This document shows positions 521 through 27,279 of a stretch of 27,845 bases of DNA, piece after piece (position 1 is the first letter of the stretch; each line of letters begins with the position of its first letter). The stretch covers positions 1-27,845 of IMG/VR virus record IMGVR_UViG_2802429221_000019. One strand, 5' to 3'. The notes beneath the pieces were generated by a model, which searched no databases, was not told where the DNA came from, and saw only the letters and a list, made by a program, of their open reading frames with translations. Position numbers and translations under genes: made by a program. This DNA comes from a virus (Duplodnaviria > Heunggongvirae > Uroviricota > Caudoviricetes).

Positions 521-993
521 GTATTTGTATTTTGTTAAATGGCGGTAAAGTGGCGATGGTGTGGCGATATGCAGAAATAATGATAGTACACGTCTGTTTA
601 AACTCTAAGGGTGAAGCAAAACTCTCCTGCAACTCATCTGCATTTCGCATATTGAACTAGGGCCTTGGTTAAACCAAAGTTTTTTCTGGGATCTTCCCAC
701 TCAACTTCATTTTTCCTCCTACCATCCACCAAAAGGTGTCTGCGCTACTCTATCTTTTTTAATCTGACAACATCCTGAGAAAAAGACAAATTCGTTAGAT
801 TTACTGTCTTTCTGCTGCCTCGAATGCTGATGTCTGCAGCACTGATAATAACTCTATCTCTTTGATATAGATCTTTTTTTTGATGAATTGCACGGCATAT
901 TATCGTGATGGCACCTTCTTGTTAAAGGTGTTGTACTCCTCATCTCGATTTTATGATGTGGGCTATGATTGGTTAGTAATAGAGTGTATCGGT

Positions 994-1275
994 ATGCGAT
1001 GTGGTTTATTAATGGCAATCTGCCTTTGTTTGGTATCTTTTAGTGGGTATGCAGCAACAGGAAAGTCAGATGCTCAGATCAAGAAAGAAATAATTAAAGA
1101 ATCCATTGAATCTTATCCAGGCAATTGTGCGTGTCCGTATAATCATGCAAGGAATGGTAGTAGATGTGGTGGACGCAGTGCATATAGCCGTACTGGAGGG
1201 TATGACGTGGTATGTTATGAAAGTGATGTTACCGATGAAATGATCCGGCAATGGAAGCAGGAGAATGCTGAGTAA
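994..1275 (+). CDS. small secreted Cys-rich protein of unknown function (signal peptide MRCGLLMAICLCLVSFSGYA; motif CxCPY...RCGGRSA)
   Basis: ORF-track frame 880..1275; start at 994 preferred because it begins a typical signal peptide, and the 38 residues upstream are non-hydrophobic. Lies in an AT-rich islet. Family not identified with certainty. Confidence 0.5.
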   Translation: MRCGLLMAICLCLVSFSGYAATGKSDAQIKKEIIKESIESYPGNCACPYNHARNGSRCGGRSAYSRTGGYDVVCYESDVTDEMIRQWKQENAE

Positions 1276-1340
1276 TCTCTTTTAACTGATTTGTTGTGCG
1301 AGCATTATGTGCAGTTAACGGCTCACTAGCTAGTGAGAGT

Positions 1341-2097: not shown

Positions 2098-3207
2098 TCA
2101 CTCTGTTTCCGCTATCCATTCCGGGATTTTTGCCTCAAGCTCAAGCTGCGTGGTAAAGCCGCTGTTATCAATGGTGTGCTCGGCTTTTGCAATAATCCAG
2201 TCCTGATTATCAATCTCGCTTTTAAATCCTGTTACCGTGCCATGCATTTCGGGGTAGAGTTCTGCTCGTCCACGTGCCAGCGTGATGGAGAATGATGCGG
2301 CTCCGCGTTGTAGTTGTTGCCACTTTGCCGCCGCTGCGCGTCTTGCTGCCTGCTCGTTCTGATAAGTCTTGCGTAACACAAACACATTGCCTTCCGCGCC
2401 TTCCATATAATCACCTTCACGGCTGCTGCTTTTCTCTTTTTTCGGTTTTGGCGGTTTGCGGCGTTTCACGCTGACTTTTTTCTTTTTCCCGTAATTAAGA
2501 TCAAGCCAGTAAGCGCGTACCCCCGTATACGCCTCGCGGTCAGCAATGCGGAACTGATGGCGATCGCCGCTGCTGCGGGTGATGGAGAACGATGGCAACG
2601 GCTGGCCCTGTGCGTTCACGCCACCGCCGGGCATGATGAATAACAGATTACCGCTTTTTACCGTGGTGATTGCGCCCAGCATTTCCGCCATGCGCGTAAG
2701 GAAGGACATGTCGCTTTCTTCAGTCTGGTCGGCGTGGTCGATTTCGATATCCATCAGCATTTCGCTGATTTGCGGTTTCAGACCGTACCGATGAGCGATG
2801 GCGGATACCACGCGCTCAACGGTCACATCATGCCAGGACACTTCACGTTTAACGTTAAATTCATCCCGAAAATCTGCGCTTCTGGCTGAAACAGTCAGCC
2901 TGTCCGGCGGTCCTTCGTGTGCGATTTCATCAACAATGTAAGACCCTTTTTCTGTCAGCGGTTCGCCTTTCCAGCCAATGAGAACCGTCAGGCACGCGCC
3001 CCGTGGTGGAAGCTGCAACTGACCATCCGCATCATCCAGCGTAATGGTGAGCTGGTCTGCCTCAAATCCCCGGTTGTCGGTCAGCGACAGGCTCATCAGG
3101 CGCTCTGCCACGCCGGACAGCGTTTTACCCTCCGCGAGAATATCAAAATCCGGCATTTTCACGGGGTCTGTGCTCTGACTGAGCAATTGCATGGTGGTAT
3201 CGGTCAT
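2098..3207 (-). CDS. D: tail protein D (late control D family)
   Basis: ORF-track frame 2098..3339; start chosen at ATG 3207 (MTDTTMQLL...) with SD GGGAGGGAG upstream. P2 gpD-like in size and sequence; contains a Lys-rich insertion KKKKVSVKRRKPPKPKKEK. Confidence 0.85.
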   Translation of the reverse strand: MTDTTMQLLSQSTDPVKMPDFDILAEGKTLSGVAERLMSLSLTDNRGFEADQLTITLDDADGQLQLPPRGACLTVLIGWKGEPLTEKGSYIVDEIAHEGPPDRLTVSARSADFRDEFNVKREVSWHDVTVERVVSAIAHRYGLKPQISEMLMDIEIDHADQTEESDMSFLTRMAEMLGAITTVKSGNLLFIMPGGGVNAQGQPLPSFSITRSSGDRHQFRIADREAYTGVRAYWLDLNYGKKKKVSVKRRKPPKPKKEKSSSREGDYMEGAEGNVFVLRKTYQNEQAARRAAAAKWQQLQRGAASFSITLARGRAELYPEMHGTVTGFKSEIDNQDWIIAKAEHTIDNSGFTTQLELEAKIPEWIAETE

Positions 3208-3364
3208 CTGCTCCCTCCCTGTGCGGCATGGTCGCATGTGTGTGCGGGCGGGGTTACTGCTTTTTGTTGTCGCCGGGCGGCAAGAACGGCGCAGGGGTGA
3301 GATTACGCGCGTGGTGGGTGATGATTGTTGCCGAATCATTTAACGGATACAAGGGGCTGAAGCT

Positions 3365-4549
3365 ATGAGTGAAACTCGTTTTCATGGTGCCCGTGTTACG
3401 GAAAATACCGACCTGGTAACAGCGATTAACGATGTTGATTCCAGCGTTATCGGTATCGTGGCAACGGCGGATGATGCGGACGCGAAGCTGTTCCCGCTGA
3501 ACAAGCCCACACTGCTGACCCGCGTCAATGACGTGCTGGGAAAATGCGGAACAACGGGGACGCTTTATCGTGTGCTTAAGGCCATCGCAGACCAGGTGAG
3601 CACAAAGGTGATCGTCGTTCGCGTGGCTGAACACAAAGAAGAAGACGGAAAGACGCAGGATCAACTGGTTATCGGTGGTTCTGAGGATGACGGCAGCTAT
3701 ACGGGGATGTATGCGCTGCTTGTTGCAGAGCAGGATGAAAGCATCGGATACCGTCCGCGTATTCTGGCCGCGCCGGAGCTGGACACGGAGGCGGTGACAA
3801 AATCCCTGTGCGTGATTGCGGGTAAACTGCGCGCGTTTGTGTATGCCTCATGTCACGGCTGTAACACGATGGCTGAAGCGATTACCTACCGCCAGAAATT
3901 CAACGAACGTGAAGTGATGCTCTTGTGGCCGGACTTCATCGCCTACAACACGAAAAGTGGCGAAAACGAAACGTTCCCCGCGCCTGCCTATGCGTGCGGC
4001 CTTCGTGCGTACATTGACCATGAGCAGGGCTGGCACAAATCGCTGTCCAACGTTCCGGTTAAAAATGTGCTGGGGATGTCCAGGCATGTGTTCTGGTCGT
4101 TACAGGCCGAAGACAGCGATGCCAACAGCCTCAACAACAAAGAAATCACGACCATTATTCGTCGCAACGGGTTCCGCTTCTGGGGCAACCGCACACCGGA
4201 AACGAACGCCTACATCTTTGAGGTGTATACCCGAACCGCACAGGTGCTGGCTGATTCAATTGCGGAAGCGCAGTTTGAAACCATCGACAGTCCACTGACG
4301 CCTGCGAACGTGAAGGATGTTATCAGTGCCATCAGGGCAAAACTGGATTCACTGGTTACTGCCGGGAAACTGATTGGCGCGGAGTGCTGGTATGACGTGG
4401 TGGATAACAGCACCACGGATTTACGTCAGGGGCGTGTGCGTATTCGCTACAAATATACGCCCGTTCCGCCACTGGAAGACATGGAGCTTTACCAGACGTT
4501 TACTGATGAATACTTTGAACCCGCATTTGCGGTGTTGGGAGGTGCCTGA
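3365..4549 (+). CDS. FI: contractile tail sheath protein
   Basis: 394 aa; conserved segments FPLNKP, GFRFWGNRT, YTPVPPLE as in P2 gpFI; SD AAGGGG upstream. Confidence 0.9.
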   Translation: MSETRFHGARVTENTDLVTAINDVDSSVIGIVATADDADAKLFPLNKPTLLTRVNDVLGKCGTTGTLYRVLKAIADQVSTKVIVVRVAEHKEEDGKTQDQLVIGGSEDDGSYTGMYALLVAEQDESIGYRPRILAAPELDTEAVTKSLCVIAGKLRAFVYASCHGCNTMAEAITYRQKFNEREVMLLWPDFIAYNTKSGENETFPAPAYACGLRAYIDHEQGWHKSLSNVPVKNVLGMSRHVFWSLQAEDSDANSLNNKEITTIIRRNGFRFWGNRTPETNAYIFEVYTRTAQVLADSIAEAQFETIDSPLTPANVKDVISAIRAKLDSLVTAGKLIGAECWYDVVDNSTTDLRQGRVRIRYKYTPVPPLEDMELYQTFTDEYFEPAFAVLGGA

Positions 4550-5061
4550 TGGCTGTGCCAAAACATCTTCGCTTTTTTACGCTGTTTGTGGATGGTGAAA
4601 ACGAAGTGGGTAAGGTGACGTCCGTCACTCTGCCTAAGCTGACGCGCAAAACCGACAGCTACCGGGGTGGTGGCATGATGGGGGCGGTAAGTATTGATCT
4701 CGGTCTGGACGACTCCGCGCTTGATGCGAGCTTTGTCATGGGGGGCGCAGTTCGTGAGCTGTTCCTTAAGTATGGCGGCACGATTGACGGCACGCTGCTG
4801 CGTTTTGCGGGTGAATACTACACCGATGCAGAAAGCGACCTGTATGAAGTCGAAATGCGCGGACGTGTGACGGAAATTGATATGGGGGAAGCCAAACAGG
4901 GCGAAGCCACATCACACACTTACGCCATTAAAAACACCTACTACAAGCTGAGTGTTAACGATCGCCCGTTGTGGGAGATTGACCTGCTGAACTTCATTTA
5001 CCGGAAGGACGGCAAGGACATTGCGCCCGATCGCATCCGTTCCGCGCTTGGGCTTGGCTGA
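4549..5061 (+). CDS. FII: tail tube protein
   Basis: 170 aa; ATG overlaps the FI stop (TGATG); size and position as for P2 gpFII. Confidence 0.88.
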   Translation: MAVPKHLRFFTLFVDGENEVGKVTSVTLPKLTRKTDSYRGGGMMGAVSIDLGLDDSALDASFVMGGAVRELFLKYGGTIDGTLLRFAGEYYTDAESDLYEVEMRGRVTEIDMGEAKQGEATSHTYAIKNTYYKLSVNDRPLWEIDLLNFIYRKDGKDIAPDRIRSALGLG

Positions 5062-5116
5062 TAAGTAATATGCAGGCGGCGCAGTGCGTCGCCTCTGACT
5101 GAAAAGGAGACCACTG

Positions 5117-5491
5117 ATGAAAAACATCGATACTGAAACCCAGAATAACACCGTGGCGGATGATGTGACGGCAGATGAGGATATGGCTGTCGAACGTGGT
5201 GTAAAACTTTCCCGGCCAATTGAGCGTGGCGGCGAAAAAATCACGTATGTGGAGATCACCGGGGCTATTGAGCAGGCTGGATCCCTGCGAGGTTTGTCGC
5301 TGTCTGATGTGCTGAATCTGAAAGCGGATACCATGTTCACGCTGTTGCCTCGCGTGACTTCGCCACGACTGGATGAAGTGATGATTAAAAAAATGTCGTC
5401 ACGCGATTTTATTCAGTTGTGCGCTGTGGCTGTAAATTTTATGAGCGAGCCAGACTCTGGCGCGAAGAGCGTGCAGGAGACGGCAGCGTAA
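5117..5491 (+). CDS. E: tail assembly chaperone E
   Basis: 124 aa between tail tube and tape-measure genes; SD AAGGAG 7 nt upstream; overlapping -1 frame ORF (E') continues into the T start region. Confidence 0.7.
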   Translation: MKNIDTETQNNTVADDVTADEDMAVERGVKLSRPIERGGEKITYVEITGAIEQAGSLRGLSLSDVLNLKADTMFTLLPRVTSPRLDEVMIKKMSSRDFIQLCAVAVNFMSEPDSGAKSVQETAA

Positions 5492-5655
5492 TCACCCTGG
5501 TGTGCTTTGAGCACATCGAAGATCTGGTGGCGGATATTGCCGCCATTTTTAACTGGTCGCCCGCCGAAATCTTCATGATGACGCCCGGCGAAGTGGTTAG
5601 CTGGCGTGAGCGGGCGGCACTTCGCAGCGGGAATGCAGACAATGAAGACTCTTGA
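5117..5655 (+). CDS. E+E' tail chaperone produced by programmed -1 frameshift (predicted)
   Basis: -1 frame is open from 5389 to 5655; slippery heptamer A AAT TTT at 5434-5440 in the E frame; analogous to P2 E/E+E' and lambda G/GT. Confidence 0.45.
5434..5440 (+). promoter_or_regulatory. candidate -1 ribosomal frameshift heptamer AAATTTT
   Basis: X XXY YYZ pattern in the zero frame of E inside the E/E' overlap; an alternative A7 run at 5387-5393 is less favourably placed. Confidence 0.4.
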
Positions 5656-8449
5656 TATCCGGGTCGCTTTCAGCGCCGTTGACAGGCTGACCCGGCCTGC
5701 CGAAAACGCCCGCCGCCTGATGGGGCAGTTTGGTGACTCCATCCAGCGAACGCAGGGGGCGATCAAAAATCTCGAGCGTCAGGCGCGTTCATTTGAGCGC
5801 GCCCGTGACGCTGTCAGTAAAGCGGATGCGGGCATCGTAAAAGCACGACGCCAGCTTAACGCCCTTAATCAGTTACAACGCACGGGTACAGTGCTCAGCG
5901 AAAAACAGCAAAAGCTGATGCAGCAGTTAAGCACCCGGCTTGAACGCCTGAATGAATCGCGCACACGGGAAATTCAGAAAATGCGGGAACTTGGCGGAGA
6001 GCTGAAACGCCACGGCATTTCCCTGACAGGCAGCGATAACACCATCCAGCAGGCCATCAGACGCACCGAACAGTACAACAACCAGCTTGAACGCGAACGG
6101 CAGGCGCTTGCGCGTGTAACGCGGGCGCGTGAGCGGTATTCGCGCGCGCAGGAAACAGCGGGAAAACTGAAAACAGGTGGTGCGCTGGCAATTGGTGCGG
6201 CAGCGGCGGGCGGCTATGCTGCCGGGCGTTTTTTGCAGCCTGCGATCGGGTTCGGGAAAGAGATGTCCCGCGTTCAGGCACTGACGCGAATCGACCAGAA
6301 CAGCCCGCAGTTTAAGGTGCTGCGTGAGCAGGCGTTAAAACTTGGCTCTGAAACGCAGTTCACCGCAGGCGATGCCGCCAGTGGACAGGCATTTCTTGCA
6401 ATGGCTGGCTTCACTCCGCAGGCCATTCAGGCTGCGCTTCCCGGCGTACTGAGCATGGCAACGGCTGGCGGTATGGATCTCGGCGAGACGGCAGATATTG
6501 GCTCAAATATCCTGACGCAGTTCGGCCTTTCTGCTGACCAGATGGACCGGGTCGGTGACACACTCACCGCAGCGTTTACCCGTACCAACACTGACCTTCG
6601 CGCACTGGGCGAAACCATGAAATATGCAGGTCCGGTGGCGGGTAAGCTGGGAATATCGCTGGAGCAGGCCGCAGCGATGGCGGGCGTACTGGCGAATATG
6701 GGCATCAGAGGGAGTGATGCCGGGACGGCAATGCGTGCCAGCCTGGCTCGTCTGGCATCACCGCCAAAGGCAGCGGCAGAAGCGCTGAAAGAGCTGGGCG
6801 TGTCCGTCTCGGATGCCGGGGGCAAAATGCGCCCGATGGAAGATCTGCTGGCTGACCTTTATAAAGCTACCCGCAAATACGGGGAAGTTGACCGGGTATC
6901 CTTCTTTAAGGACATCGCCGGGGAAGAGGCTTTCACATCGTTTATGGCACTCGTTGATGCGGCGGGTGACGGTTCCTTACCCAAACTGAGAAAAGAACTT
7001 GAGGGCGCACGCGGTGAGGCTGAACGCACGGCAAAGGTTATGGCCGACAACCTTGATGGCGACCTGAAAAATCTCGACAGCGCATGGGAAGGTCTTCGTA
7101 TTCGCATCAGTGATCTGGTTGACGGTTCGCTGCGTTCTGTCACGCAGTGGCTAACGCGGGTGGTCTCAAAAGTGACGGCACTGGCGCAGGCCCATCCTGT
7201 ACTGACGCGCCAGCTACTGATTGCAGGCGGTGCGCTGCTGGCAGTGACTGCAACCGTAGGCTCGTTGTCGCTTGCTCTTGGTGTGCTTGCTGGCCCACTG
7301 GCAAAACTGCGTCTTGGTTTTTCCCTCCTGACCGGATCAATGAATGCTGTCAGGCTCCTGCCTGCACTATGGGGAATGGTGACGGGTTCCGTTTCGTTAC
7401 TGGGGGGCGCTATCGGGGCGCTGTTCAGCCCGGTCGGATTGATTGCTGCTGCGTTTGTGGCTGCGGCAGTTCTCATCTGGAAATACTGGGAACCCATCAA
7501 GGCGTTTTATGCCGGGGTGTTCAGCGGGATTATGGAGCGGCTGGCCCCGTTACGCGAAACCTTTGAACGGTTTGGTCCTGTTTTTGACGCAATCGGAAGC
7601 GGGATCAGCCAGGTGTTTAACTGGTTTAAATCGCTGTTGTCACCGATGGAGTCCAGCAAGGAAACGCTGGATAAATGCACAAGTGCTGGCGAGGTATTCG
7701 GTAACGTTCTTGGCGGTGCGTTACAGCTTGTCCTGACGCCTGCAAAAATGCTGCTGGATACGTTGGCGTGGATACTTGAAAAACTCGGTGTTCTTCCGGA
7801 TGAAGCGGAAAGGGCGCGCAAGAAAATCGAAGACGCGCAGCGTGCGGCCATTCTTCAGGACAAGGTTGCTCTGTTTCAGGGAGACATTGCGAAAATCAAT
7901 CCGCCGAAGCCTGTGGAAAATGGCAATGGCACCGGAGGTGATAACCCCAAAGACAACAAACCGCTCACAGACAGCAATACCGGTACGCTACGCAGACTCA
8001 GCAAAATTGCTGATAACACAGGTAAGCTGGTTGATGAGACGAAAAAACGCATTGGCCCCGGCGATATTGTCTTTAAGAACCTGCCCCGCGCACTTGCCGT
8101 TCGTGGGGAGTGGCAGGAGCGGAAGATTGCGCAGGTCAGTAAGCCTGCCCCCGCAATTAATATCACACCTGTGGTTCCGGCTCCGCTGCCTCCGGCGCTG
8201 GTCCCTGTTGTTGCGGCCAGCTCCCGCCCGGTGGCAGAGGCCATACGATCGCCAGTGGCATCAGTTCCTGCAACTTCCCGTAACCGGGAGCCTGTTGCCT
8301 CCGGATTTGGCGGTGAAATTCATGTTCATCTGCATAACGTTGTTACGCAGAATCCCCGCGAACTGGCGAAACTGGTCGGTGAAATGGTCAGGGCAGAAAT
8401 GGAACGGCGCGCCCGTGCCGGGCGTGGCAGTTTTTACGATAAAGATTGA
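5606..8449 (+). CDS. T: tail tape measure protein
   Basis: 947-aa ORF (GTG at 5606; possible ATG starts at 5633 or 5642); coiled-coil N-terminus, Gly/Ala-rich hydrophobic core, position between chaperone and U. Confidence 0.85.
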   Translation: MSGRHFAAGMQTMKTLDIRVAFSAVDRLTRPAENARRLMGQFGDSIQRTQGAIKNLERQARSFERARDAVSKADAGIVKARRQLNALNQLQRTGTVLSEKQQKLMQQLSTRLERLNESRTREIQKMRELGGELKRHGISLTGSDNTIQQAIRRTEQYNNQLERERQALARVTRARERYSRAQETAGKLKTGGALAIGAAAAGGYAAGRFLQPAIGFGKEMSRVQALTRIDQNSPQFKVLREQALKLGSETQFTAGDAASGQAFLAMAGFTPQAIQAALPGVLSMATAGGMDLGETADIGSNILTQFGLSADQMDRVGDTLTAAFTRTNTDLRALGETMKYAGPVAGKLGISLEQAAAMAGVLANMGIRGSDAGTAMRASLARLASPPKAAAEALKELGVSVSDAGGKMRPMEDLLADLYKATRKYGEVDRVSFFKDIAGEEAFTSFMALVDAAGDGSLPKLRKELEGARGEAERTAKVMADNLDGDLKNLDSAWEGLRIRISDLVDGSLRSVTQWLTRVVSKVTALAQAHPVLTRQLLIAGGALLAVTATVGSLSLALGVLAGPLAKLRLGFSLLTGSMNAVRLLPALWGMVTGSVSLLGGAIGALFSPVGLIAAAFVAAAVLIWKYWEPIKAFYAGVFSGIMERLAPLRETFERFGPVFDAIGSGISQVFNWFKSLLSPMESSKETLDKCTSAGEVFGNVLGGALQLVLTPAKMLLDTLAWILEKLGVLPDEAERARKKIEDAQRAAILQDKVALFQGDIAKINPPKPVENGNGTGGDNPKDNKPLTDSNTGTLRRLSKIADNTGKLVDETKKRIGPGDIVFKNLPRALAVRGEWQERKIAQVSKPAPAINITPVVPAPLPPALVPVVAASSRPVAEAIRSPVASVPATSRNREPVASGFGGEIHVHLHNVVTQNPRELAKLVGEMVRAEMERRARAGRGSFYDKD

Positions 8450-8455
8450 GGAGTC

Positions 8456-8950
8456 ATGGCCATGATGATGATCTACGGCATGTTTGTTTTTGAGTTGCGC
8501 ACATTGCCGCATCAGCAGTTACAGCAAAATAAAAGCTGGCGACATGTGAAAAATGAACGCGTTAACCGTTCAGCAAGCTGGCAGTATATCGGGGCAGGCG
8601 ATGATCGTATTGTTCTTTCTGGTGTGCTTTATCCTGAAATTACAGGTGGCGAAGTGTCGCTGTCGCTGCTGACCACGCAGGCGTATACAGGACGCCCCTG
8701 GCCTCTTATTGATGGCGTCGGGCAGATTTACGGCATGTATGTCCTGACCGAAACGAATACGACCCGTTCCGAGTTTGATCGCTACGGTAAGGCGAAAAAG
8801 ATAGAATTTTCACTGACCCTTGAACGCTGTGATGAGGATTTGCGGGAGCGCCTGCAATCCTCATCGTTCAGCGATATGCTGTCCGGCTTCAAAGATAAGG
8901 TCACATCATCTCTTAACAGCGCGGCCAGCTCCGTTAAAGGGTTGTTTTGA
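8456..8950 (+). CDS. U: tail protein U
   Basis: 164 aa; SD GAGGAG upstream; P2 gpU-like (MxxxGxFVF...LPxQxLQQ..SWRH). Confidence 0.82.
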   Translation: MAMMMIYGMFVFELRTLPHQQLQQNKSWRHVKNERVNRSASWQYIGAGDDRIVLSGVLYPEITGGEVSLSLLTTQAYTGRPWPLIDGVGQIYGMYVLTETNTTRSEFDRYGKAKKIEFSLTLERCDEDLRERLQSSSFSDMLSGFKDKVTSSLNSAASSVKGLF

Positions 8951-8958
8951 CTTAATAC

Positions 8959-8988
8959 AAAACCGCTAATAAACATATTGGCGGTTTT
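8959..8988. terminator. bidirectional hairpin terminator between convergent U and G
   Basis: AAAACCGC ... GCGGTTTT inverted repeat with an inner AATA/TATT helix; A/T runs on both sides. Confidence 0.45.
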
Positions 8989-9009
8989 GTTCCTTAAATC
9001 ATCTTGCCT

Positions 9010-9585
9010 TTACACTAATTCTGGCCATTCGATATCAGGGGCATTTTCCGGCTGAACACGGTTAAGCAATACCCGGTATTTTTTCCATTTTGTCAGACTT
9101 AATTTTTCTTCTTCTGTAGCTATATCCAAATCGACAGCATCCTGCAGCGTGGCAATAATTTCACCTGCATATGCAATCAGCTCTTTCTTCTGAGACTCCG
9201 CCGCTCTGACAAGCGCATCACGTTCTGCATTCTCATCATTCACCCACGCATTTCCGTCCCATTTCTGATAATCCCCCTCCGGGGAAATAGCTGTCACGTC
9301 TGGAGGTAATACGCCAAGTTCAGAAATATAAATGGCTGCTCCTGTTTTCGTTTCGTAGACGGTCTTTCCGCGATGGTCTTCCATCAGTTCCCATTTCATT
9401 TCATCTGCATTGAAAACGGCTGCATAACCAGCAGGAATATCAGGTGGTGCAATATCTGTACTGTTTGCAGGCAGGCCAGTATACGGCGGAATATATGCAT
9501 CACTTTCGCCAATAAACTCATTGGTTCCATTAAGTAAATTGAAAACGCGGATAGTTTGTGCTTCTGCACTCATTCTGAAAGCCAT
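9010..9585 (-). CDS. G: tail fiber assembly protein
   Basis: 191 aa, immediately downstream of tail fiber gene with overlapping stop/start (TAATG); typical Tfa sequence. Confidence 0.8.
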
Positions 9586-12200
9586 TATGCAAGCCTCACA
9601 ATATAGTTAAATGCGATGTTTTTGACGGTGTTTTCGGTATTACCCGTAGCATTTACCGTGATGGTGTGCCCGTGCGCACCTAATGCTACAGTGTGTGCAT
9701 GGGCACCAATACCTACAGTGTGGTTATGCTGACCAATATCCACCGTATGGGCGTGCGCTCCGGCTGTGCTGGACACCTGATTGTTTCCTGAAGCCTGTAC
9801 ACGCTGTTTTCCACCGACAGAGTCGCCGCCATAAACACCACCGACAGTGTGCGTATGATTGCCCGTATTGTTCGTTGATTTTGTGCCATGGTTAAACGTA
9901 CTGACTGTCTTCGTGCCGTAATCAAATGAACTGGTCGTTTTCGTCCCTAAATCCGTATTTGACGCACTGGCGCTGTGAGTATGCGATTTAATCCCGTCCT
10001 GTTCCTGTGACAATACAGCACGTCCACTGGCGGGTTTGCCCTTGATTGTCCAGCCGCGCATATCTGGAATAACACCAGAAGGATAGGCAATAGCCAGTTT
10101 AGGATATGCTGCCTTATCAAACGTCTGCCCCTGCATAATTGCATAGCCTGCAGGTGGTGTATCTGATGGCCACGGCAGCGGAACACCTGGCGGAAACGCT
10201 TCAATATTTGCCGAGCCGTCAAATTTTACGCCGTTAATTGTCCTTGCCGTTTTCAGCTTTGTTGCTGTAGCCGCATTGCCGGACAGTTCGCCTGAAAGAC
10301 CACCGCTGAATGTCTGTTTCGCCGCCCATGTCTGAGCTTCGTCAATAATTGGCACACGTCTTGTCGTGATCGTGCGGCTTCCCGGATTTCCTGAAATACG
10401 CACCATAAAAAAGCGGTAGTTCGCTTTACTTACAGTGCTGCGCCATACATGCATTGAGCGCCCCGTACCGGAATCATCACTCGGACCAACTGCGATGTTT
10501 ATCAGGTTGCCATCAATGACGCCCCAGTCCATACCGTCGGGAATGTTGGTCATGTTATCAAGCCGAACGGTTATCAGACTGCCCGGCACAAAGTCGTAGG
10601 TCTGCCAGTCCAGGCTGGTGAGCTTTGCCACAGCACCGCCGATACCCAGATTCAGGGGAAGTGAATACGAGGTGTAGACTTCCCGCCATTCGCTCCACGA
10701 ACTGCCGGTATAGACGCGCTCAAACGTGCGACCTTTCGTTGTCGTTCCTGTCCCTGTAGTGGTATAGCGTTGCAATACGGCAACGTAATCAAAACGTCTG
10801 ATAACCTCTAACACCCCTATTAGTGTTGCACCAGATGGATCCAGCAATGGACCATTGGTCGCTTTACCCGTCACACTGTAAATACCAGGGTCGGTTAGAT
10901 CATTCAAATCACCGTCATAAAAGCTGCTTGCAGTCTGGCTGCCGATTCTTAGCCATGGTTCCCACTGCGGATTTGATGCATCCCAGTTTGCAGCAAGGCA
11001 GCGGACATACATGTTCCCACGGCGAGTGGTATAACGCTGGGTATAACTGAATCCACCGCCTTTCAGAACTTCAAGCACCCCCTGCGCGTAACTACCAGCT
11101 TCGGGATAGTGCAACGCAAGAGAAGCTAACGTACTGGAACTATTTCTCCATGTACCCAGATTATCCTCTCCGGCCAGAAAATCGAGATCCATGCTATCAT
11201 CCAGCGTTCTGGCCGTCCCCTGAACGTTACGCCATACGCTCCACGGACCATCTTTGCCGTTCCATTTAGCCGTCAGGTGGCGAATATAAGTATTTCCATT
11301 GCGAACGGTGTAACGCTGTGTTCCGTTAAAATTTCCTGCTGCAAATACTTCCAGGACACCAACGGCATTCTCTTCCGGGAAGTGTTTGGCTATCTGTGCA
11401 TTAGTCGAAGTGCCTTTTGACCATGTACCCAGATAAGCTTTAACGGGACCAAATGTATTCAGATCAGCATCAACCGGCATTTCGCCATTGTTTTTCATAA
11501 ACGTCAGGCTGGTAACGCCAACATTGTCCAGAAAAGCGCCCTTATCTGGAATATCGTCACCGTTCTGGTCTTTCTGCAGACGTTTCTCAGCATTGTCATA
11601 GGCTGCTTTTACTGCCTTTGGCGTTGCCGCCAGCTTTTCACTGGTGCTGTTTGTTGCACTGCTTAACTGGGTAAAACCTTTTTCTGTCAGCGTGGCGTCA
11701 GGATGGCGGCGGGACTGCTCATGCTCTGCGATTTTGTCATCGACGTAATCCTGCGTCGCCATCACTGTGCTGGCATCAATACTCAGCTCAACGGATGCCA
11801 CGTTACTGACAATAATGACCATGCGGCAGGTCTGCGCACGTCCGGAGCCTTCAGCCAGTTCAGGCTTATAGCTTTCTGCCATGTTGGCGACCGCAATCAG
11901 TGTTCCGGCATCGTCATACAGACCAAGTTCACGCATCCAGAAGCCGCCCACTTCTGGCGGAACAACCAGTTCAGCCACGATATAGTTTTTATTCTTATTA
12001 TCCACGCTGACTTTATTCAGGGCATGACGCCAGACCTCATGCACCAGCTTCGTCTGACCGGCATCCGGCACCGGCAATTTGCCATTACCGTCACCCACGG
12101 CCATTGCAGACAGGTTTACTTTTTTCCCGCCGGGAACGGTGGCGGCTGCCAGCTTCGCGGCTCCGGCAGTAGTGATAACGGTTTTAAATTTCGTGCTCAT
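9585..12200 (-). CDS. H: tail fiber protein with C-terminal His-x-His repeat receptor-binding region
   Basis: 871 aa; N-terminus [20 protein letters not shown] typical of P2 gpH; C-terminus carries repeated HTV/GAHAHTV motifs. Confidence 0.85.
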
Positions 12201-24718: not shown

Positions 24719-26416
24719 TTATTTATCCTCTTTAATGATTTTGTTATAGTCAAAATCCCAAATTTTTCTGTCAATGCCGTTTGTTGGTGTAACCCGGTAG
24801 AATAAGGATCGTAATCCATTGTAAAAATACTGGAGAGATTTCTGATTTTCTGGTTTGTCTAACCAGTTTCTTGTAATCATTCTAAAGAATTCAATATGCT
24901 GATTGAATATTTTCTTATTTAATTTTCTTCTTAAACCGGATGTAGACTCATGGTTGTCTTTTCTTTTCTGAATTTCAGTTTCAATTGATTGTAATTGAGG
25001 ACGTATCTTGAGTAAGTATAACTCTTTCGAAAAACCATTGTTAATTATATCCTGATTTTCCCAGAAGGAAGAGTCGTCGGTATTATAAAGGTGCTCACAA
25101 TGCTCAAATATCAATTGTTCTGGAGCTTTTTCACCCGGCAGTGATATAATTCCTCTCTGATCCTCAGGGCTGTGATCTCCATCAAGAATACAAATTGATT
25201 TTAACGAGGTTTCCTTAAGATGAGAATCATTAAAAATAGTTTTTAAATTGTCTGCACCAATGAAACAATCAATTAAGTGAAATGAATTACTAACTATAGC
25301 AAAATTTGGATATTTGCTTATCCAATAACCAAGTATTTCATTAAATAAAAAGCGAGCTTCTTCATCTTCCGTGAAAACTGGTATCTTGTTCCTTGTGTAT
25401 ATCTCATCCTTTGTTTGTGTTTTCAGATACATTGTTATTTTTAATATATCAGGATTATCCAAAAGCAGAGCCTTTGTAATATTGTTAATTAGATAGGCAA
25501 CATGATATTTTTTATGAAAAGCATATTCTAGCAATGTCAGACTGTGCGTTGTGAAAAATACTTGAATCTTATAATCTTTTGCGTATTGATAAATTTTATC
25601 TAATAATCTTATCTGTAAAGAAGGATGTAAAGTGGCATCAAATTCATCTATTAACAGAATGCTTTCTTTTTGATCAGTGGATTGAATAAGTGATTCAAAA
25701 TAATACCTAAGGCTAACTAATGCCTTGATTATAACGAATATATTGTCTTCCCCGGATGATATGGTATTAGAATCAATTGCTGGGTTATCGGTATCAAATA
25801 ATGGGCCAGCTTTAAAATCTCCGATATTGTTTGATTCTATATTTATAATATTAATGCCCAAAAGTTCATTATATATTTTCGATATATAACCAACATACTC
25901 TTCTGGTAGGTTTAACGGAATTTTTGTAAGGGCGTCGTCTTTAGTTTCACCAATTGGGAATAGTCGCGATAATCCAAGATATAAAACTGGTTTAGCTGGA
26001 AGTGATTGTTTTTCTTTTCCGCGTGGGTATACTGGTTTGATAGCATACCGTTGCGCTTCGTCTGGATTTTTTGAGTTGTGCTTTCTGAAGTCTAGTGTGC
26101 TATGATCCAAATAGTTAATAGAAAATAACACACCTTTTGTTCCCTCTGCCGGATCGGTGTAATTTTTTGATTCCCTAACAATTGCTTCCATTTTGGGGTT
26201 GGCTATTTTGTTTATAGATTTTATAACTCTAACACAATTACTATTTGAATAATTTTGTGATCGAGATGGTGGCATTTGGAAACCATTGCTAATTAAATGA
26301 AGCAATGTTGTCTTACATGTCCCATTGGTTCCTGATATTATATTGATGTCTTCATTGAATGAGAAGTCAATATCTATCAGTTTCTTAAATTTTTTAAAAC
26401 TAATTTCTTTAATCAT
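24719..26416 (-). CDS. OLD-family-like ABC ATPase with C-terminal Toprim-like nuclease domain
   Basis: 565 aa; Walker A GTNGTCKTT (aa 29-37), signature-like ISSGE (aa ~219-223), Walker B ILLIDE (aa 253-258), H-loop FFTTHS (aa ~287-292); C-terminal PVFTEDEE (Glu ~350) and ILDGDHS (DxD 412-414) fit a Toprim fold; SD AAGGA 8 nt upstream; very AT-rich. Confidence 0.7.
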   Translation of the reverse strand: MIKEISFKKFKKLIDIDFSFNEDINIISGTNGTCKTTLLHLISNGFQMPPSRSQNYSNSNCVRVIKSINKIANPKMEAIVRESKNYTDPAEGTKGVLFSINYLDHSTLDFRKHNSKNPDEAQRYAIKPVYPRGKEKQSLPAKPVLYLGLSRLFPIGETKDDALTKIPLNLPEEYVGYISKIYNELLGINIINIESNNIGDFKAGPLFDTDNPAIDSNTISSGEDNIFVIIKALVSLRYYFESLIQSTDQKESILLIDEFDATLHPSLQIRLLDKIYQYAKDYKIQVFFTTHSLTLLEYAFHKKYHVAYLINNITKALLLDNPDILKITMYLKTQTKDEIYTRNKIPVFTEDEEARFLFNEILGYWISKYPNFAIVSNSFHLIDCFIGADNLKTIFNDSHLKETSLKSICILDGDHSPEDQRGIISLPGEKAPEQLIFEHCEHLYNTDDSSFWENQDIINNGFSKELYLLKIRPQLQSIETEIQKRKDNHESTSGLRRKLNKKIFNQHIEFFRMITRNWLDKPENQKSLQYFYNGLRSLFYRVTPTNGIDRKIWDFDYNKIIKEDK

Positions 26417-26433
26417 CTATATCATCCTTAAAT

Positions 26434-27279
26434 TTAAATGTCAGGGATTTTTATACCATGATTATAAATGATAATTTCTAGACCTTTTTTCTTATCTTGT
26501 GCAGTATAATTAAGCGTATAATCAGTCATATTGAATTCATGATATATGCTTTTTATTTCAGGCACATTGTCATAAGACACAACCCAAGGTAGTTGAATTT
26601 CCCGTAGTGTATTAGCGATTTTTACATGATCATCATGTTTATAAAAATTTCTATATAACTCTGCTCCTTTAACATAATAAGGTGGATCAAGATATATTAG
26701 ACTATTTTGGGGTAGCAATGCTTTTTGGTGTAGCAGAAAATCTACAGCATCAAAATTCGATACGTAAATTTTCTCCTTATATGCCCCAATTAGTTCAATC
26801 CTTTTAATTAACTCTTTTTTGTTGAATCGTGCATCTAACTTCCATGGTCCTTTTTGTTCTTTCCCTCCAATAACGCCAGCCTTAAGTATTCCTGAACGGT
26901 TTGTTCTATTTAAAAAGAAAGTAGATAATGCGACTTCAAGCATACTATATTTATCATTGTTTAGGAGTATCTCCTTTTGAGTATGCCAATTTTCAATAGT
27001 CACAGGAACTTCATCAATCATTTCACATAACAGATCGTTATGATTAACCACTGCAAACCAAAAAGAATAAAGGGCAGGATCAATATCATTTATGAAGATA
27101 TTTTCAACAAGACCGTTAAGGAGCAAACCTAATGCAACACCGGCTCCACCTGCATAAGGTTCAGCATAACATCCACCAATGAGATCATTGTTGCGGAGTA
27201 TTTGTTCAATATGTGGCAAGAATTTTGCCTTACCTCCCGGATAACGAAGAGGGGTTCTAAAATGAGAAGGCTTTGTCAT
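26434..27279 (-). CDS. Dam-family (D12 class) N6-adenine DNA methyltransferase
   Basis: 281 aa; motifs YPGGK (aa 13-17), EPYAGGAGV (aa 40-48, SAM-binding FxGxG type), DPPY (aa 198-201); 17-nt gap to the downstream OLD-like gene. Confidence 0.85.
   Translation of the reverse strand: MTKPSHFRTPLRYPGGKAKFLPHIEQILRNNDLIGGCYAEPYAGGAGVALGLLLNGLVENIFINDIDPALYSFWFAVVNHNDLLCEMIDEVPVTIENWHTQKEILLNNDKYSMLEVALSTFFLNRTNRSGILKAGVIGGKEQKGPWKLDARFNKKELIKRIELIGAYKEKIYVSNFDAVDFLLHQKALLPQNSLIYLDPPYYVKGAELYRNFYKHDDHVKIANTLREIQLPWVVSYDNVPEIKSIYHEFNMTDYTLNYTAQDKKKGLEIIIYNHGIKIPDI

Follow-up and report, generated by a model that had tools for sequence, protein, structure and literature searches.

Known relatives and the left end of the leuZ prophage

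In Escherichia coli strains that make Shiga toxin (STEC), the tRNA gene leuZ is listed as a conserved prophage and island site (PMC8767318, PMC7067040). The same integration site is used by CP-933T of O157:H7 EDL933, by elements reported in O121:H19 and O145:H28, and by the element described here. We analysed 27,845 nucleotides (nt) of the IMG/VR record IMGVR_UViG_2802429221_000019 (Caudoviricetes; positions 1–27,845), hereafter called the window, in which an AT-rich islet (523–1343) next to leuZ carries a gene (994–1275) for a small, presumably exported protein with four cysteines. This cargo gene is not discussed in either of the two publications. In all likelihood, 523–1343 forms the cargo-bearing, att-proximal terminus of a Xuanwuvirus-type P2-like prophage (Peduoviridae) at leuZ, with one live cargo gene whose four-Cys product is exported.

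The closest isolated phages are the Xuanwuvirus members P88, PhiR44_2, Chuche and P884B11 (Peduoviridae), which show 95–96% nt identity over 77–87% of window positions 1344–26000; for P88, PhiR44_2 and Chuche, this level of identity is seen over the late-gene region from 1344 to ∼24,480. They have the same hok/sok–ogr–D end and the same inverted FI–U tail block as the window. Unlike the window, they carry neither an equivalent of 523–1343 nor a copy of the open reading frame (ORF) at 994–1275, and their att arm differs; the prophage in the window has a leuZ-specific att/int module. Besides this identity, the P2-type late genes (ogr, D, sheath, tube, tape measure, portal and terminase) are supported by a Pfam Ogr_Delta match and by what RefSeq annotates in homologous DNA. 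In O157:H7, the islet lies beside leuZ at 92% identity, and that prophage differs by the IS30-associated loss of hok, ogr and part of D. The insertion sequence (IS) stands directly past the ORF there and has removed hok, ogr and most of D, leaving the ORF and the att arm intact (L002 4840–6386).

The left end of the prophage was located from the repeat that flanks it. The tRNA operon in the window consists of glyW (152–227, its first gene here), cysT (281–354) and, as its last gene, the integration target leuZ (367–453, + strand), a tRNA-Leu(UAA) identified by ARAGORN, by Rfam tRNA and by the RefSeq annotation of identical DNA. The att core, in its attL copy, spans 399–522; it takes in the 3′ portion of leuZ, starting at the anticodon loop, and the intrinsic terminator of the operon (496–517, + strand), which was found by a terminator scan. 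The right end of the prophage lies outside the window, and the second att copy was read in the genome NZ_CP024232 (L004), which has a 100% identical islet. There, the 124 bp of 399–522 are repeated directly past the integrase gene at 29360–29481, with identical blocks of 64, 34 and 16 nt; the integrase has 333 residues and its gene ends ∼105 bp ahead of the core.

A second line of evidence came from the 34,888-bp IMG/VR contig UViG_2548876853_000002 (L122). It contains, without a break, int, the P arm, the core, the P′ arm, the islet, the ORF, hok, ogr and D, and it has no complete tRNA gene. Position 399 is exactly where the alignment of the window to this contig begins; the int-side arm of L004 matches the contig as far as the end of the core. 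This contig is the attP configuration. The P′ arm (523–600) is the first phage-specific DNA and stands next to the core both in attL, in the window, and in attP.

We also compared the region downstream of leuZ among reference genomes, as the original prediction had proposed. In a megablast search with 455–1400, 5,425 of the 5,426 complete E. coli genomes were matched, nearly all of them only by the first 68–70 bases (to ∼522), and the islet itself was present in only 646. The islet is thus inserted DNA, as had been claimed, and not conserved core genome 3′ of leuZ. In insert-free genomes the junction reads ...GGTGGTTTTTTTGT followed directly by GCCTGCAAC..., and yecA starts 195 bp past leuZ, which agrees with the K-12 arrangement given in that prediction. 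Because the 399–522 repeat follows int in L004 and the attP contig contains the corresponding junction, the islet is the prophage's own att-proximal end and the first phage base is 523. These junctions fix the att boundaries and assign the islet to the phage. The earlier placement of the islet between the tRNA operon and the prophage was not supported; it lies inside the prophage.

A boundary at 1343/1344, where the homology to P88 breaks off and where the terminator at 1351–1378 might have served as the att core, was considered and is excluded by the 124-bp repeat past int and by the attP contig. Position 1344 marks a mosaic junction between phages that differ in their att/int modules. Among 36 IMG/VR viral contigs carrying the ORF, it lies within ∼2.3 kb of a contig end in 32, which is consistent with an islet at the phage terminus, and a 35.2-kb metagenomic contig starts ∼500 nt upstream of the ORF.

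The base composition changes at the same place. The GC content is 0.494 for 1–522, 0.401 for 523–1343 (0.403 for 540–1320) and 0.517 for 1344–2400, against 0.514 for the whole window, and the fall starts directly past the leuZ terminator (496–517). The sharp drop after the tRNA terminator was therefore described correctly. The islet is not the AT-richest part of the window, as a region around 25,200 has a GC content of 0.30.

The attL core (399–522) is identical to that of prophage-free E. coli, and the attR copy (L004 29360–29481) differs from it at a few positions (…GACAAGAATAATC…, CACCTACGGG). One would most simply expect the phage to have contributed the 3′ part of attL, and the opposite is seen, which is a hint of a crossover close to the core's right end or of later conversion. 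Straight past attR in the same genome (29482–43515) there is a second island, with a P4-type integrase gene disrupted by IS21 and then a further tyrosine recombinase gene. The leuZ site is occupied in tandem in this genome, and yecA is displaced by far more than the prophage.

Next, we examined short repeats in the P′ arm. Three direct 10-mers spaced by 11 bp lie at 537–568 (+ strand): AAATGGCGGT at 537, AAGTGGCGAT at 548 and GTGTGGCGAT at 559, with the consensus AA(A/G)TGGCG(A/G)T, the first one starting 15 bp past the core. The P arm has three copies in the same orientation past the int stop codon (AAGTGGCGAT, AAGTGACAAT and AAATGGCGTT; L004 29255–29293), and the background of 10-mer matches is ∼1 per kb. 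The original prediction had noted a direct repeat here; it is present as GTGGCGAT, and its position, given as about 559–584, was off by ∼10–20 nt, since the two copies lie at 550–557 and 561–568 and belong to the 10-mer cluster. By itself the 8-mer pair is weak evidence: searched as a 9-mer with one mismatch allowed, it gives 9 matches in the window against 7.1 expected. A Salmonella leuZ prophage retains the block at 537–575, as ATGGC.G.AAAGTGGCGAT.GTG.GGCGATA.GC, though the DNA surrounding it has diverged and no longer aligns.

Repeats that are unlike the core and occur in both arms are a hallmark of the arm-type sites of lambda- and P2-type tyrosine integrases. The motif at 537–568 is distinct from the core and is repeated in both the P and P′ arms. 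By analogy with those systems, we regard the repeats as candidate arm-type binding sites of the integrase.

The cargo gene and its probably exported four-Cys product

The gene at 994–1275 (+ strand) encodes a 93-residue precursor, MRCGLLMAICLCLVSFSGYAATGKS...CACPYNHARNGSRCGGRSAY...C..., and in RefSeq, identical DNA is annotated with this very frame and start. The signal-peptide-like N-terminus, the four Cys and the motif CACPY...RCGGRSA were found exactly as had been described from the sequence, and this is the sole conserved reading frame within the islet, in agreement with its having been called the only credible one. A longer, TTG-started version of 131 residues (880–1275) is not supported, as homologues in other taxa have ∼90–110 residues. 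The ratio of nonsynonymous to synonymous polymorphism (pN/pS) is 0.09–0.26 between E. coli haplotypes; the ORF is real and under purifying selection.

The 190 nt upstream of the ORF (803–993, + strand) show 92–99% identity between haplotypes, compared with 84–86% for 601–802, and presumably contain the promoter and the 5′ untranslated region. Two −10-like TATGAT hexamers occur in this block (952–957 and 964–969). We infer that the ORF is transcribed in the lysogen from a promoter of its own, which would lie in this conserved block. On the other side, the intrinsic terminator at 1351–1378, which was found by a scan of both strands and is bidirectional, is common to the ORF (+ strand) and the convergent hok mRNA (− strand).

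Classical morons for exported proteins, such as lambda bor and lom, and the P2 cargo genes tin, old and Z/fun are single-gene cassettes at variable prophage loci. The ORF cassette resembles them in its absence from close relatives, its deviant composition, its own terminator and its position at a variable locus. Homology of the window to P88, Chuche, PhiR44_2 and other phages sets in only at 1344, the GC content of the islet is 0.40 against 0.52, and a terminator is present; on the promoter side there is the conserved block with the two TATGAT hexamers. Strain 33-6 has a different insertion, a P2-like remnant that separates copA from glsA, and a copy of the cassette (798–1284) with 86% identity lies ∼55 nt inside it. 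Because it is absent from the closest isolated phages, deviates in composition, has its own terminator and is mobile, we conclude that the cassette is mobile att-proximal cargo, that is, a prophage moron with a presumed promoter. The category assigned to it originally, a moron at the prophage end, was correct. It has no relation in sequence or fold to the classical morons, and its product is neither a lipoprotein nor an outer-membrane barrel.

The N-terminus of the product consists of M-R, a 14-residue hydrophobic core, CGLLMAICLCLVSF, with a 12-residue Kyte–Doolittle mean of 2.9, and S-G-Y-A/A. By rule of thumb, residues 1–20 (MRCGLLMAICLCLVSFSGYA; 994–1053, + strand) would form a signal peptide with a signal peptidase I site after GYA, placed by inspection. 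No lipobox of the pattern [LVI][ASTVI][GAS]C is present in the ORF product. A similar N-terminus is seen in 43 of 44 aligned relatives, which have exactly four Cys in the mature part. The protein is thus predicted to be exported by Sec and cleaved after Ala20, leaving ∼73 mature residues.

Family searches, also among the proposed checks, placed the product in a PHROG family and in no Pfam family. It matches phrog_27544 over its full length (E = 1.5e-59, profile positions 1–81 of 81), as do all 44 aligned relatives; this membership names the protein, and the family has no assigned function. The only Pfam hit, Sclerostin (PF05463), scored 16.8 bits against a cut-off of 27 and was discarded as reflecting Cys-rich composition, and a sub-threshold RIM2a_ZnF match was discarded on the same ground. 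Over the 44 diverse homologues, 15 columns are invariant, including C45, C47, C58, C74 and G59-x-R61-S62-A63-x-S65. In a HMMER search, 2,307 cluster representatives (50% identity) were found at E ≤ 0.001, 1,473 of them below 1e-10, and a separate search gave 260 homologues. The family extends over enterobacteria, Beta- and Alphaproteobacteria, Xanthomonas and relatives of Geobacter, and its members are named "hypothetical" or "secreted protein" in every source.

Among phages, tblastn with the ORF product against 50,697 genomes gave no hit at 1e-3, and at E ≤ 1 only a 29-residue core matched. Weaker profile matches through residues 37–70 were obtained with phrog_14503 and phrog_3117. The former, annotated as "membrane associated protein" (TL-2011b gp43, BUCT711), has in common with the ORF product a signal peptide and the core G-x-C-x12-C-GGRSA-x-SRPGG (55–62% identity over ORF residues 41–69), and its genes are found among the accessory genes of temperate phages. 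Its peptides differ in having 53 residues, ∼30 of them mature, and two Cys; the second pair of Cys is missing, as are both the N-terminal and the C-terminal helix. The corresponding Uetakevirus-type genes lie at 3441–3602 of L015 (TL-2011b) and 3435–3593 of L016 (Klebsiella phage BUCT711); the TL-2011b gene adjoins ant/arc and a YafO-family toxin gene. Since these 53-residue peptides retain only the equivalents of C45 and C58, at the same 12-residue spacing, we suggest a C45–C58 disulfide and, by elimination, C47–C74.

The only functional hint comes from fusion partners. In 50 longer relatives, the four-Cys domain, usually C-terminal, is combined with SH3_3 (14), PG_binding_1 (3), SNase (3), TonB_C (1), GmrSD_C (1) or Adhesin_E (1). 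These fusions would place it in the periplasm or on the envelope, near peptidoglycan-binding modules and secreted nucleases, and suggest a small binding module rather than an enzyme. A comparable module is Excalibur (PF05901), a small Cys-containing part of secreted SNase-type nucleases, which is similar in size and extracytoplasmic place; in some relatives (P0127, P0244), the four-Cys domain takes its C-terminal position past SNase. One relative (P0179) appears by eye, unconfirmed by Pfam, to have an Excalibur-like D-x-N-x-N-G-x-x-C-E together with the four-Cys domain. The likeness is one of architecture, as the four-Cys domain has no sequence similarity to Excalibur, no DxDxDG calcium motif, and four Cys instead of two. 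In Pseudomonas sp. EpS/L25 (L017 6001–8826), a stand-alone homologue lies two genes from an SNase+Excalibur nuclease gene; this may be a coincidence or a functional link, the same domain being fused to SNase in other species. A lysozyme inhibitor of the Ivy/PliC/MliC type was considered, too, and dropped because the motifs differ and the predicted helix-loop-helix architecture is unlike those folds.

Proposed function and its alternatives

Taken together, the proposed course of events is as follows. The phage would have integrated site-specifically into the 3′ end of leuZ at the core 399–522, leaving, in inward order, the P′ arm with three presumed integrase sites, a dead hok/sok leader, and the cassette formed by the upstream region, the ORF and the terminator shared with hok. 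The cargo gene would be transcribed in the lysogen, independently of the late operons. Its precursor would be exported by Sec, cleaved and oxidised to a mini-domain with two disulfides, and, once mature, the protein would serve as a small binding module of the periplasm or envelope, altering a property of the lysogen without belonging to the virion or the lytic programme. A periplasmic binding protein expressed in the lysogen is the most likely reading of the product.

Several points weigh against this proposal. No consensus sigma-70 promoter was found on the + strand by a promoter scan, integrase binding to the repeats is argued from analogy, and signal peptide cleavage and disulfide pairing were judged by inspection only. 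Pfam, NCBIfam and PADLOC give the product no family; the AlphaFold model is moderately confident (predicted local distance difference test score, 78.9) and matches no solved or viral fold. Across 80 species-level loci, no recurrent neighbour gene was found, the best neighbour family being present at 7, and many relatives stand in chromosomes without an evident phage nearby, which means that the domain is not confined to phages.

A narrower form of the same proposal assigns the exported protein to superinfection exclusion or another anti-phage role in the envelope; from the periplasm, it would keep incoming phages from penetrating the cell wall or bringing in their DNA. In favour of this, the product is a small exported protein, its position resembles that of other P2-like prophage cargo (the PD-Lambda-5-like pair at 24719–27279 in the window and Thoeris genes beside ogr in related contigs), peptidoglycan-binding fusion partners put the domain where phage entry occurs, and the weak core match leads to phrog_14503, which is classed under moron/host takeover. 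However, no defence family was matched in PADLOC at E ≤ 0.001, and the family is widespread in chromosomes without phage context. We regard this version as unlikely. It is also doubtful that the protein is a host-fitness or stress factor of the lysogen, for example a stationary-phase envelope protein, unrelated to conflict between phages.

Still more broadly, and only tentatively, the core of ∼65 residues, SYPGxCxCPY...GxxCGxRSAxSRxGG...CY..DV, could be an undescribed extracytoplasmic ligand-binding domain of Proteobacteria. P2-like and Uetakevirus-like phages would then have captured free-standing copies with a role in the lysogen's periplasm, where they might, for example, take up a site on the peptidoglycan or envelope that incoming phages need.

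The remaining alternatives concern the islet itself rather than the function of its product. One of them takes the functional element to be an RNA, with the hok-leader copy at 657–802 (− strand) still making a Sok-like antisense RNA, an orphan antitoxin, and the ORF being incidental. This segment is ∼70% identical to 1661–1828, in the leader of the adjacent intact hok locus; the local alignment score is 94, compared with 24.5 ± 3.4 for dinucleotide shuffles, and the blastn E value is 5e-7. The homology is thus significant, and a small hairpin with a T-run, read by eye, is kept at ∼727–756 (+ strand). However, the copy has no match to Rfam sok at E ≤ 1, and it is the least conserved and fastest-evolving part of the islet, with 84–86% identity between haplotypes, a divergence near that of the ORF's synonymous sites. 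The Salmonella and copA versions retain the ORF but not this segment, and at 70% identity it would be expected to pair poorly with the neighbouring hok mRNA. An orphan Sok is, in our estimate, very improbable. Instead, we read 657–802 as a neutrally drifting remnant of a dead hok/sok leader, covering the mok-start/Sok region and differing from hok/sok loci in having no toxin ORF.

Since Salmonella relatives carry two complete tandem hok loci, duplication of the leader followed by decay would be a reasonable history. No Hok-like ORF was present in the ORF list on the minus strand of 474–732. A decayed hok coding region at 523–656 was rejected; there is no Hok-like frame, and the space is taken up by the conserved P′ arm, with ∼80 nt between it and the leader copy.

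It is extremely improbable that the tRNA operon and the prophage are separated by an independent genomic islet or remnant: isolated Xuanwuvirus phages do share window DNA only from 1344, but the att repeat is 399–522 and not at 1344, the attP contig joins int directly to the islet, the 1344 position is a mosaic boundary, and in the inspected islet-carrying loci prophage DNA or IS-disrupted remnants always follow next past the islet. Least credible of all is a chance or decaying frame at 994–1275 in AT-rich junk, for which a weak Shine–Dalgarno sequence, the lack of a consensus promoter and annotation only as hypothetical could be cited, against the pN/pS values, the invariant columns in homologues from Alpha-, Beta- and Gammaproteobacteria and Geobacter relatives, and the 2,307 representatives. 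The preferred reading is that of an att-proximal cargo end with a live gene.

Neighbouring genes, distribution and significance

Inward of the cassette lies an intact hok/gef-family type I toxin gene (1465–1605, − strand; 46 residues), recognised by RefSeq and by Pfam HOK_GEF (E = 3.7e-7, above the cut-off). Its leader and Sok antisense region (1595–1750, − strand) give 47.3 bits against Rfam RF01794 sok (E = 7e-9), short of its gathering score (59), and an upstream mok-like frame (1648–1734) stops ahead of the hok start. The late-gene activator gene ogr (1795–2055, − strand; Pfam Ogr_Delta, E = 5e-14) is the first conserved P2-type gene inward of the cargo. The intact hok between the ORF and ogr, the leader copy at 657–802, and the position of the GTGGCGAT repeats in the P′ arm with counterparts beside int were not part of the original prediction.

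In Salmonella enterica leuZ prophages, the corresponding interval from the P′ arm to hok encodes a 68%-identical protein, and a tandem hok pair follows past the ORF homologue (8713–9351 in L011, L013 and L014; 8713–9362 in L012). The E. coli version has a single intact hok locus, with the ORF standing between it and the leader remnant.

Other parts of the prophage also carry cargo. The ogr–D spacer (2055–2098) is a variable cargo site in relatives, holding a Thoeris-type pair (SIR2_2/STALD and ThsB_TIR) in L023 (2095–4010) and L024 (1974–3889) and a 1,464-nt gene in strain A17 (L007 5781–7244). At 24719–27279 (− strand), past the portal and terminase genes, a gene for an AAA/OLD-like ATPase (565 residues) lies beside a gene for a Dam-type N6-adenine methyltransferase (281 residues) that matches PADLOC PD-Lambda-5_B (E = 8.7e-122). 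This defence-type cargo pair is the AT-richest part of the window (GC ∼0.30). In 2098–12200, the FI, FII, E, T and U genes (3365–8950) are on the + strand, and the flanking D/ogr and G/H genes are on the − strand; we take this FI–U tail block to be inverted relative to the canonical P2 order. The arrangement is also found in P88 and in the O157:H7 and Salmonella relatives.

Among the 646 complete E. coli genomes with the islet, 586 carry it nearly full-length. Its haplotypes show ∼100, 96.6, 92 and 90.5% identity, and the hosts include O157:H7, O103, O111 and O6:H16.

The type of element, its integration site and its hok/sok neighbour were already known, and the protein had been catalogued as hypothetical and as a PHROG. 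The precise anatomy of the islet is new, as is the recognition of the cargo protein as a member of a large unnamed family of exported four-Cys domains. The finding is a fairly ordinary prophage moron and not a new kind of system.

For a common family of leuZ prophages in E. coli and Salmonella, these results fix the exact left boundary and the att anatomy and explain the short repeats. About 12% of complete E. coli genomes, among them those of O157:H7, O103 and O111 strains, have the cargo gene. Were a phenotype established for the phage copy, thousands of hypothetical proteins would gain an annotation, near-universal ones in Klebsiella among them.

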